Source of the DNA: Carcharhinus longimanus
Taxonomy: Eukaryota
NCBI GenBank assembly: GCA_030264375.1
Contig: JASCQW010000156.1
Coordinates: 23,028,706 to 23,092,705, forward strand
Direction of reading: 5' to 3'
DNA length: 64,000 nucleotides
The notes beneath the pieces were generated by a model that did no database searches, was not told the origin of the DNA, and worked only from the letters and a program-made list of their open reading frames with translations. This document shows, one piece after another, positions 14,808 through 64,000 of this stretch (the first letter of the stretch is position 1; every line of letters begins with the position of its first letter). The position numbers and the translations under genes were made by a program.

Positions 14808-15128
14808 ATATGGCCGTGTGGAAAGTGTCAAAATTCTTCCCAAAAGGGGCTCAGAAGGTGGAGTGGCAGCCTTTGTGGATTTTGTGGACATCAAAAGTGC
14901 GCAGAAAGCGCACAATTCTGTCAACAAAATGGGAGACAGGGATCTGCGAACGGATTACAATGAGCCTGGCACTATTCCCAGTGCTGCTCGGGGATTAGAT
15001 GATACCGTTCCTATAGGAACTCGTACTAGAGAGGTTTCAGGGTTCAGGGGAGGTGGTGGGGGGCCAACATATGGACCACCACCATCACTACATGGACGGG
15101 AAGGACGTTATGAACGGAGACTTGATGG
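14808..15128 (+). CDS. SPEN: SPEN exon 2 (321 nt; RRM1 C-terminal part, YGRVESVKILPKRGSEGGVAAFVDFVDIKSAQKAHNSVNKMGDRDLRTDYNEPG...RRLDG)
   Basis: Acceptor ttttgctttcag at 14806-14807 and donor GG|gtaagt at 15129. The peptide is recognisable as SPEN RRM1. Phase 2-2. Confidence 0.97.
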
Positions 15129-16432
15129 GTAAGTTCCAAGGTTTCTCTAGGCAGGGTTTTGATAAATAGTGTGGTGAAAAGCAGCAACTCATGTATAGGT
15201 TCCCCAGATGGATTTATTGAGGAAATCTGTTCATTCGTGCCGTTGTTGGATATGGAAGAAAATTGAAACCAGTAGCAGCTCTGGCCGATTCGCAGTGGAT
15301 CTATCCTGCAGCTGGCTGGATGACTACTCCTGGGATAAATTTTGGTTAGTTTGATGGAAGGTTTCTGTCAGTTAATATGGAGTTAACCCTCGTAATAAGC
15401 TTCCCTTTTCTCCCTGGATTGCAAGCAGTTCCCTCTGGATGTATCCCTTCGATCGAGTGGCTATAATATTACTGTCTGATGCAACTAACCTGAGGAATAC
15501 CTACATTTTGAGGCAATACTGAAGTGCATTGAAGACTTTCTGCAGTATTATATTTGGCTTTGGTTTAAACATAAAGTATCGATGCACATTCTTTGGATAT
15601 GAAATATTTCTATGAAGATAGAGTACTCTTGTGATTTACCATTTCCTGGAAGGATCTTACAGCCAATGATTTTCAACAGGAATACATGCAAGGAAAGCTG
15701 AAGAATGAGGACGTAACACATACAGTTATCATGGGTCTACAAATCTGTACTGTTTATTTTGTTTCTCCCTGATTGGATCTTTTGGATATTTATGGGCTAA
15801 AGATAAAATATTAGAAACTTTTAAAACAGTTGGAATGCCATTTTCCCCGTATAATGGAATAGAGGTCATTATCTCTTCAACATGGGATTATATGCACCTT
15901 TAAGTAGTTGTATGGCAGAATGGATTACCTGGTTTGTGTTTGACACACTTCTTGCTTCTACCTTATTGTACCAATGGACTATCAAACAAGGGAAAACTTA
16001 GTGGATGCGTCACGTTTTAATTTTCAGACCAAATGTGAAAAGATTTCATGAGAACTGAATGGCTACTGACTGCTAGAAAATGGATAATAAATGCCTTCTA
16101 CTAGAAGAAAGAAAGCGCTGTGCCCTGGGAGTGACGGGTATAGTTGCTTAATATCGTCTCAAGAATTGGGATACATCTCTCTACTGACACACATCAAATT
16201 GAACTTCGCCATCTCAGAAAGGTCTTGGGGTTTGGGAGTCACTTTTAACTTTGGGAGCTATCTGTTTACAGGCGAATGCACTTAACACTGGCAATGGAAG
16301 TTTATCTTTCTTGGGCGTTCAGTTTTCTTGATACAATCCCCAAATCATTGCGGCACTAGCACTATCCGAAGTTGGATTACCCCTTTAAGAGGGGACCAAA
16401 TTGGGAATGTTTGTACACTTTTCTCTCCCTAG

Positions 16433-16474
16433 ATTTAATTGGGATTTAGGTCGTGTTTACTGCAGTCTAAAAAG
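16433..16474 (+). CDS. SPEN: Candidate 42-nt in-frame cassette exon (or 3' part of an alternative first exon with ATG at 16407) in SPEN intron 2
   Basis: Acceptor acttttctctccctag and donor AAG|gttggt. Phase 2-2 and stop-free between exons 2 and 3 (G-FNWDLGRVYCSLKR-ASD). No transcript evidence. Confidence 0.5.
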
Positions 16475-18009
16475 GTTGGTATGTCCTGCCATGTATATCT
16501 TAGCCCCTCTCCTAACCCAGTCAACCCTTCCTTTCCACTAACTCCAGTAGTCATTAGCACTGCTAGAAACTCAAACAGCACCTTAGCCAGTAGAATCTCA
16601 CTGACTTACAGCTCTATTAGCTCCTCTGCCTGTCTCTGTGTCTTTCTTGAATTAGAAGTTTGTATATTTTGTATGTCAGCTGATGCAGTAACGCTTTGGA
16701 ATCAGCTTGCTTCTTCTGATTGCTGAAAGGTCAGTGTAAAATGATTCCACAGTATGTTGTAAGCTCAGTTCTGTAACTGTAGCTTATAAAATTAAATCAA
16801 GTTGACTTGCATAGTTTAGTGCTTTGCTGCTCAGTGTTTCCTGAATCTGTAGAATGTTTAAAAAATTAACATTTTAATAACTTATGTGGGAGACATGTAG
16901 AATGAATAGGGACAAAAATGGCCAGAATGAAAATGAAGTAATTTAATAAGAACACAGTGCAGAATTCAGAAATTAAAGTAACCACATTTCTTTAATACAT
17001 TGTTACTGAAGCAAAATATTTAGCAAATTAATGAATCAGGAAATCTTTTAATGACCTTTTCTATATCTTTAATGCCTGAAAATTGGGAAGTATAACTAGC
17101 TAAAAAAATTAAAAAGTATCACTCCATTTGAAAGTGAGGAAGTAAATGTTTAATTGTAAAGGATGGACATTGGAAGAAAGCAGTTGATTTTTTGAAAAGT
17201 ACCTTCTTGAACAAATGTGAAAAGTGAATCAAGCTAGCTTTTTGTTGTCTTTTGGACTTAAGCCCATGGCAAGAAACCAACAGTGTTGCATATTTTTGCT
17301 ACAGCTTTGTGTTCTGCATTGGGGACTTGGGAAATTTGGGCATGGGGGTTCACCTTTCAGCAATTGCTGTCTAGTAGTTAAAGTGATGACTGAGGTTCAG
17401 CCAGTTTGAATATTCAAAAATGGAACCACCATCATCTGTAGATAATCAGCACTGCTGCTGCTTAATTCCTGCTTTCTTCCAAACGTGAGTTTTCTGGTTA
17501 AACACTGGCTACAAAATGTCTATCTTTGTCATTTGAGATTTGATGGTCAGCGCCCCTATGGATTGATTTGGTGCATGGCACAATATTTGAAAATGTAAGG
17601 ACTTCCTGTATAGTTTTAAAATGATCAACAGAGTAATTTAAAGTAATTGATTGAGCAGAGGGAACAGACAGTGGGAGAATTCTTAATGTGAAAATATCAA
17701 AACCTCTTTATGTATAATATATGTATTACTTGTGTATCAGTGCCTGGGAATTGGAAAACACAAACTCTACAGATGATTAATTTAAAAAATTAAAGTTAAA
17801 GGGAAACCTGATTCAACTATTTTAGGTCGATACTGAATACATTGCTATTGCTAATTTCTCTATTGTTTCTATATGCTCTCTAGTTAAAATTCAAATGCTT
17901 ATTTTCCCAGAGCTTACTAGGGGCAAGTTGGGGAATTTTTTGCTATCTTGCTGATGCTTGACAGATTCTTATTTTTTCCTCCTCCTCCCCATCCCCAAAC
18001 AAAACACAG

Positions 18010-18483
18010 GGCTTCTGATAACAGGGAGCGTACTTATGATCACAGTGCCTATGGACACCACGATCGTACAGCAACAGGGTTTGATCGCCCCAGACATTAT
18101 GAACAGGATTACTATAGAGATCCCCGAGATCGAACTATACAACATGGAGTTTATTATGGGTCAAGAAGTCGAAGTCCAACTCGATTTGAAGCTCATGATC
18201 CACGTTATGAACAAAGAGGGAGGGAACAGTTTGCAATATCAAGTGTAGTGCACCGAGACCTCTACAGGGAAGATATTACTCGGGAAGTAAGAGGGAGACG
18301 ACAGGAAAAAAATTATCAGCACAGCAGGAGTCGATCCCCACATTCCTCACGGTCAGGAAACCAGTCACCGCAGCGATCTAGTCAAGCATCAAGGTCACGC
18401 CGTTCTCCCAGTGGCAGTGGGTCTCGGAGTAGGTCATCAAGCAGTGATTCAGTCAGCAGCAGCAGTAGTACCAGCAGTGACAG
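18010..18483 (+). CDS. SPEN: SPEN exon 3 (474 nt; Arg/Asp/Tyr-rich then RS/Ser-rich region, ASDNRERTYDHSAYGHH...SSSSDSVSSSSSTSSD)
   Basis: Acceptor cacag at 18008-18009 and donor AG|gtaggt at 18484. In frame with exon 2 (GG|G GCT). Phase 2-2. Confidence 0.95.
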
Positions 18484-61863: not shown

Positions 61864-61964
61864 GTGGATTTTGCAAATCGCGAGAGTCAGTTGGCATTTT
61901 ATCGTTCTATGGAAGTCTCTGGGCAGGATATCAGAGATTTATATGAAATCTTTGCTGAGAGAAG
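61864..61964 (+). CDS. SPEN: SPEN exon 10 (101 nt; VDFANRESQLAFYRSMEVSGQDIRDLYEIFAER, RRM4 end plus C-terminal helix); ends at a GC donor
   Basis: Acceptor ctcccttttag. SPEN-like peptide ends at AAG|gcaagt (61965-61970), a consensus GC-type donor. Confidence 0.93.
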
Positions 61965-64000
61965 GCAAGTGAAAAAGTTTTTTTTTAAAGACAAAGGCTT
62001 CTCAAATGATAACTATAGTGCCAAAGTGTCAGTTTTTCATAGACCGTGCATTTAATGCACCTATTATGCTTAAGGTTTTTACTTCAACAATGTTTAGACA
62101 ACTTGTCACAACCATTTAATCCAGCAATGCCAATTAACTTTGGCAAATATATAAGCAATTGTGATTTTTAAGTTAAGTACAATACTGTGAGGAAAGGAAA
62201 TGTTTTCTGCATACTGAATTATTTCTTTTGCCTAATAGTATTATGTAAAACTAAGCCTTTTTCAGCTGGATTTCTGACTGCGCTCACTCATACACCAATA
62301 TCATTTTAAACTTCTGCGGCCATACTTGACATATGCAGTTACGGTCAGATTAGTTTTTAAGACAAACTGTGACTCCAGTGACCTGATGAATATCCTAATG
62401 TATTTGTCAATCCAAGAGTCGTCTTCTGTCAGGACAGAAACTGTGAAGAAACTTACAGGACTCAAATTTTAAGCCAGAGCAGTGTAAAAATAGTTCAGTC
62501 TCAAAAATTACACACTTTATAAGTTAAAGCAATACATGGCAAGCTGATCAGTTTGCTTTGTAGATGAATCATTCCTTTCCTCAGTCAGCAAGTCTGAGTG
62601 AGGGTCTTTGGAGTGTTACTTGATTTCCAAGGTTAGATGTTGACTGACTACAAGATGGTCAGTGTGGCATAGGCTGTTATGGTTGTACTGATTTAGGTGT
62701 TTGTCATTAAGCCACGGCTTTCTTAGTTGGTTCTAGGAAAATCTCGTACTTGTCATGCATGCAAGATATTTTGATGTGGCCAGGTAGTTGTTCCACGTTG
62801 TCTCCTTGTCATTATAAAACCCCAATAGGTCAGCTTTAAAACACTTCACATTTTCTCAACTAAAGCAATTTATTCTTAAGCTTAGATTAGTACTTCTAGT
62901 TTTTAAAATATAGTTTGCAAGTATATTCTATTTTCAGAGCCAATGAGTTCTTGTTTTCTTCCATTTCAGATGTTTACCCTGGAATGGGGAACTTACTGGT
63001 CCTCGAGCATAAATATCAGTGAAGCACTGCTGTCCTTTCCAAACAGAAAAAAAATCAAATTGATGACAGTTTACAGATTTAGCTACAAGCAGTAGTCTTT
63101 TCAAATTATATGGTAACAACTACCAGCTCTCCAGGGGGCTATAGGAGTCAGCAAAGCAAATGAGCACAAACAAAACAAACTTCAGGGGATTGAGGTAGAA
63201 AATTGTAATTTTAACTGTCAGCCCTGGTCATCTTCTAACTGGGCTATTATTTGGTATGTCTATCAGCAGCAACTCATAATACGTATTGCCTACATCATTA
63301 AAAGCACACATTGGGACAGTATATCAACACCAACCTCTGTCAAAGTTTAAATAAATCGTGAGATGCACTGTTCATTCAACATTGTTGACTAGCATAATTT
63401 GGATATAAAATGCCTATTGTGGAACATATCACTTCTGCCTGCCATATTTGTCTTGAGTTCCCAAACCAAGCCCCTAAATTGGCAACTTAACTGTGTGTCT
63501 CATGTTTTTCAAGGCAAAATTAAGAATCAGGAAAAGCAAAAGAAAGACAGGTTACAAGCAGTTTGTACATTGAGCCATTGATCTCAGTAAACATTGCCCG
63601 TGATTCACCTATGCAAAGCACTAAGCGATGACACTCGGAAAGATGTCAGTCACCAGAACCAGTCAAGCTACTTTTGATCCCTGTCATGGCTGAAGAATAT
63701 ATATCATTCAAAGACTAAAGGAAGCTGGTTCATTTTTAATAAAATTGATTTGTTTTCCACTTGAGGAATCTAAAGTGCATCCTCTATATGTTTTTGCAGT
63801 AAAAATTTACAAGCATACAAACAACATTATGTTAAATGTTCTAATTTCGGAACAGAATAGTGATTAAAGCAAGGATTAACAACATCTCAGCAAATTATCT
63901 TCGGAGTTCCAATGCCATTTTAAATTTGTTATATCCAGCCCTGCAGAAGAAAGCCTCTTAACTTGACAAACTTTTATTTACGTAGTCACACAAGTCTTCT

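Follow-up and report, generated by a model that had tools for sequence, protein, structure and literature searches.

What does the exon-like element deep in intron 2 of shark SPEN do to the transcript? The window, the whole 64,000-nucleotide stretch of Carcharhinus longimanus DNA that we analysed, holds SPEN from exon 2 onward, with exon 1 further upstream. The nearest named proteins are SPEN isoforms of Mustelus asterias (97%), and a search for a second genomic copy gave 1 match only. Exon 2 (14808..15128, + strand, 321 nt) encodes the second half of RRM1; exon 2 of mouse Spen is also 321 nt, judging from a block size in PMC8327914. Intron 2 (15129-18009) begins with a proximal, productive donor, GTAAGT (15129..15134, + strand), and ends at exon 3 (18010..18483, + strand), whose acceptor is common to this donor and a distal one. 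A preliminary description of the distal site correctly placed an ATG at 16407-16409, a pyrimidine tract with an AG at 16431-16432, and donors AAG/GTTGGT after 16474 and TTG/GTATGT after 16478. Its frames were also right: with the 42-nt piece, FNWDLGRVYCSLKR would be added without a frameshift, and a 46-nt piece reads RLGF and then TGA at 18016-18018, followed by TAA. The idea of a conserved regulatory splice element in SPEN intron 2 held up as well, but the cassette exon, the 4-nt donor switch, and a conserved start codon were not supported.

First, the distal donor of SPEN intron 2, GTTGGT at 16475..16480 (+ strand), is real and used. Twenty-four runs, none on record as RNA, were considered, and the contigs of four of them (X1, X2, X4, and X6) were compared over 15140-18130, a range that begins downstream of exon 2. 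Contigs can show presence, not absence, and uncovered parts, including 15140-15484, count as no evidence. A 1019-nt contig from X1 differs from the window at 2 of the 988 nt over 15485-16472 and then splices from 16474 to 18010 with GT..AG borders (the aligned joint, 16472/18008, is cut at +2), as the preliminary description had predicted for this junction. The same contig runs unbroken through the ATG and the AG, and on this one contig at least 990 of the 1346 nt of intron upstream of the donor (15485-16474) were kept. The joint was present in one of the four runs compared; X2 and X4 had no contig on the element, and X6, from a relative ~94% alike, was unspliced across the donor site (16015-16865). 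Neither a joint from 16478 nor a loose end at 16433 was listed for the contigs of the four runs in this range. Distal-donor use would keep the entire segment 15129..16474 (+ strand, 1346 nt), and we infer that its 15129-15484 part is continuous with exon 2. The X2 and X6 contigs both stop near an A-rich run at 16857-16900, downstream of the donor; these ends may reflect internal priming or an intronic 3' end.

Second, the strength of the donor fits its use. Scored against a U1 consensus, donor 16474 has 8/11 matches, the exon 2 donor has 7, and the site 4 nt further on has 6/11. With 8 of 11 matches and use in RNA, donor 16474 is more than a chance occurrence. The second donor-like site (16479-16480, + strand), whose use was not seen, is simply the +5/+6 GT of the distal donor. 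Among constitutive SPEN donors of the window, 8 of 9 have GT at these positions, as do 24 of 52 strong donor-like sites, and the GT 4 nt past donor 16474 is thus ordinary rather than special. Shifts of 4 nt between donors likely arise from the donor consensus itself, and most such sites are put down to noise (PMC8055015); SPEN was not found in nine text supplements of that study. Like the GYNNGY tandem donors described there, the shark site has two GTs 4 nt apart, but unlike them only 16474 was seen used, in one contig. That the pair forms a regulated switch between productive and premature-stop forms, as had been claimed, is extremely improbable: the second site matches U1 at 6 of 11 positions and is unchanged in X6, but its use was seen neither in contigs nor as an intron in the reported mouse cluster, and in extended RNA a stop precedes both donors. 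Elsewhere in SPEN, the exon ending near 61964 (61964-61970) has an apparent GC donor, AAG/GCAAGT.

That stop, an in-frame TAA at 15130-15132, had been overlooked. Reading through the proximal donor adds a Gly and then meets this TAA, the first of 23 in-frame stops in the extension, which also contains 31 upstream ATGs. Because the TAA lies right after exon 2, extended RNA would be unproductive whichever of the two neighbouring donors ends it. If the RNA includes exon 2, the TAA stands ~1340 nt ahead of the 16474 junction, and by the usual rule of nonsense-mediated decay (NMD) a stop placed so far before a junction leads to decay. Distal-donor use would thus join 16474 to exon 3, lengthen exon 2 by 1346 nt, and place a stop directly after RRM1, giving an RNA that encodes RRM1 only and that would be degraded by NMD or retained and turned over in the nucleus. 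We consider it likely that donor 16474 extends exon 2 by 1346 nt into unproductive RNA, with m6A probably promoting its use, as reported for mouse. Such a switch could act as a dose valve, in which more methylation would mean more distal-donor use and less full-length SPEN, a dosage-sensitive repressor.

Third, a closely similar event is on record in mouse, where Spen intron 2 has an m6A-dependent alternative 5' splice site, reported within a proposed feedback (Wei et al., 2021; PMC8327914). The mouse LeafCutter cluster contains two introns only, with the exon 3 acceptor shared and donors 1213 nt apart; by exon sizes, its ends are those of exons 2 and 3, and it lists neither a cassette junction nor a +4 donor (PMC8327914). 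Distal inclusion (PSI) fell from 0.337 to 0.167 on METTL3 loss (p 0.002, adjusted p 0.156), and five m6A peaks, 5053a-e, tile the region between the exon 2 donor and a point 24 nt before the distal donor (PMC8327914). LeafCutter's alternative 5' splice site class, as described there, also takes in alternative first exons, and the words 'NMD', 'nonsense', and 'premature' are missing from the main text of PMC8327914. The shark event thus resembles that of mouse in gene, intron, 321-nt exon 2, and shared exon 3 acceptor, with the distal donor 1346 nt into intron 2 in shark and 1213 nt in mouse; it differs in that m6A is only predicted in shark, where DRACH motifs are not enriched and UGGAU is. 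Position and amniote gene models point to shark 16474 as the probable orthologue of the mouse donor, and the switch is likely the same one, conserved down to sharks.

The class of mechanism is therefore already known and the surprise modest; the locus, which had been called under-described, deserves that label only in part, since the mouse event is published (PMC8327914). What is probably new is the depth of conservation of the Spen intron 2 switch. A literature search for 'Spen intron', with most subscription journals outside its reach, gave only PMC8327914 and its preprint, and under the same limit no titles on conservation of the event were found.

Fourth, the DNA around the donor is conserved as bases. 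In tblastn, amniote peptides align to one frame of the window over 16369-16404 and to another over 16404-16445 (E ~3e-9 to 2e-8), and by eye the match enters the third frame after FNWD. Similarity over 16369-16445 thus spans several frames, so that bases are conserved and codons are not, and it crosses frame-shifting indels, as expected of an RNA element. A conserved island (16349..16569, + strand) surrounds the distal donor and reaches ~95 nt into the downstream intron; compared with X6, it shows 2 substitutions and no indel among the differences listed. Counted the same way, the 200 nt round the donor have 3 differences and the other 651 nt have 34 (p 0.013), with none in the 95 nt downstream of 16474 (p 0.011), all in windows picked after viewing. 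Conservation of 16407-16484 alone versus X6 was not significant (p 0.32).

Might the element instead be a minor or tissue-restricted micro-exon on donor 16474, 42 nt in sharks and 24 nt in teleosts, that rescues the frame? Its appearance invites this idea. The acceptor-like tract and AG (16419..16432, + strand), which showed no use in the X1 contig, has 13 pyrimidines in 14 positions, the frame is open, and the + strand of the window contains only two open phase-2 acceptor-donor pairs, the candidate element and one true exon, at thresholds chosen post hoc as the element's own scores. The exon-like look of the element is fair on this count. In addition, shark and amniotes alike have 14 residues between SLPR and exon 3, internal indels notwithstanding, although the codon register shifts inside the 42-nt piece between them. 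Annotated SPEN forms argue otherwise. We collected 90 entries from cartilaginous-fish hits and clusters (three clusters had 30 more members that went unlisted) and 103 from other vertebrates. Among the cartilaginous-fish entries listed, 76 join exon 2 directly to exon 3, 9 skip exon 3, 3 lack both, and the remaining two are a skate model starting MRRM and a sawshark model, P0228; the other vertebrate entries comprise 73 direct, 6 with exon 3 skipped, 21 lacking both, and 3 crane models with the homologous donor. None of these 193 long SPEN entries listed (149 direct) has the 14 residues or any other insert at the exon 2/3 joint, and the single spliced contig reads through the AG, so the proposed 42-nt cassette went unrepresented. 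In the primate, desman, crane, and sawshark models that use the homologous donor, it never forms part of a cassette.

Teleosts bear on the same question. Among 19 shorter proteins that include the ends of both exons, two teleost 'hypothetical' models insert 8 residues; in all, 8 such residues precede exon 3 in three teleost GenBank models, ending SLKR, CLTR, or CLKR. These endings at the same KR/TR suggest that the donor extends to teleosts and make a small micro-exon conceivable. Against a micro-exon, the teleost models are 'hypothetical' proteins, the eel model draws its 8 residues from another upstream donor, the corresponding inner AG of the shark (16448-16449) would yield 25 nt, and the mouse cluster has no junction of this type (PMC8327914). 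Rare splice forms can be dropped by contigs and annotations alike; even so, we regard a micro-exon as quite unlikely. Separately, 9 of the 90 listed entries from cartilaginous fish and 6 of the 103 from other vertebrates are annotated as skipping exon 3 (18010-18483), which would be in frame and give an isoform without the RS-rich region. The MRRM-starting skate model, P0220 (isoform X9), implies yet another donor upstream of exon 3; no fitting site was found in the window with one pattern.

The sawshark model raises a different possibility, namely that a promoter in intron 2 and donor 16474 create an alternative first exon, with SPEN lacking RRM1 translated from ATG 16407..16409 (+ strand). 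P0228, an automatic model, starts with exactly the 23 residues that the window encodes from this ATG (MFVH...SLKR), and Pfam finds 3 RRM stretches in it rather than 4, without RRM1. To this extent the RRM1-less start suggested earlier has a counterpart. Other models also open a frame at the element: three from cranes place 76 residues' worth of intron before the homologous donor, and partial models from chimpanzee, orangutan, and desman place long intron sequence there. The X1 contig, moreover, starts at 15485, short of exon 2. The ATG itself is not conserved, however: G16409A turns it into ATA in X6, amniotes have no Met at the position, where their models read Ser-Tyr, and those models begin elsewhere and in other frames. 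The 31 ATGs of the extension lie upstream, and the region has no CpG island (CpG o/e 0.41, GC 0.39). Annotation pipelines, furthermore, choose the longest ORF in stop-containing RNAs. A search with residues 1-42 of P0228 against long proteins gave 17 candidates, none at E 0.001, and was uninformative. We consider an alternative first exon very unlikely. Human SPEN-202 may be the distal-donor form. According to a preprint, SPEN-201 and SPEN-202 occur at equal ratios in human fibroblasts (bioRxiv 10.1101/2025.11.02.686099).

It is highly improbable that the acceptor and paired donors serve as a decoy exon, which would hold the spliceosome unproductively and cause intron 2 retention. From fish to mammals, OGT, SF3B1, and SNRNP70 retain conserved decoys, often with alternative donors 7-12 nt apart (PMC7373989), the X6 contig is unspliced through the site, and conservation continues downstream of the donor. 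But this donor is truly spliced, in nascent RNA of mouse at one junction in three (PMC8327914), unspliced contigs are possibly pre-mRNA or DNA, and SPEN had 0 mentions in the two decoy-exon papers listed. Folding of 16340-16580 gave no stability beyond that of shuffles (z +0.97); a hairpin predicted over the AG in a 41-nt piece was not significant (z -0.75), was missing from the 101-nt fold, and was rejected.

What, then, might set use of the distal donor? TGGAT occurs 13 times in the extension, where 3.1 copies are expected (p 0.005, family-wise across all 5-mers, 1000 shuffles), a count reached in 0 of 190 background windows; it occurs 0 times on the other strand and once in the other 1535 nt of intron 2. 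This array of 13 UGGAU motifs, confined to one strand of the shark extension, is new. By contrast, the 21 DRACH motifs of the extension amount to 15.6 per kb, below the 21.5 per kb of the remainder of intron 2, and this lack of enrichment gives no support for m6A control in shark, where m6A promotion of the distal donor would follow by extension from mouse Spen. GGAU, present 18 times, has been reported in plants as a minor site of m6A (PMC8796052), and GGAUU as sensitive to METTL3 inhibition in human cells (bioRxiv 10.1101/2025.11.02.686099); to tie these reports to the shark TGGAT array is speculation. It is unlikely, though conceivable, that the UGGAU array is a jawed-vertebrate-wide sensor of SPEN dose that sets distal-donor use through non-canonical m6A or an RNA-binding protein, with the nearby acceptor giving an in-frame micro-exon in some tissues. 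Also within the extension, an acceptor-like site near 15428 makes a second unproductive exon possible at 15410-15620; a horse intron-2 exon peptide with a stop (P0064) matched the window only at E ~1, and this match was not accepted.

The proposed unproductive extension of exon 2 from donor 16474 has parallels beyond Spen. In Ythdc1 intron 11, an m6A-promoted distal donor likewise diverts RNA from the coding form, but the gene is another one and its published effect is stronger (PMC8327914). Arabidopsis FPA, of the SPEN family, restrains its own expression by way of an RNA that encodes just the first RRM, but it uses intronic polyadenylation, unlike shark SPEN, and the likeness is an analogy only (PMC10111866).

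Splicing regulators reportedly carry unproductive splicing in conserved elements, as Lareau is said to have described in 2007. The shark element is like these in being a conserved non-coding element that adds a premature stop in a gene for an RNA-binding protein, and unlike them in being a long exon extension, not a cassette, with decay only predicted.

Several consequences follow for SPEN. 'RRM1-less' isoforms in databases are likely by-products of stop-containing RNA. With one donor now named, blocking it might raise SPEN. If the shark switch is that of mouse, it is older than the shark-mammal split and hence arose long before Xist, and it would point to a long-standing connection of m6A with SPEN level, not to X-inactivation.
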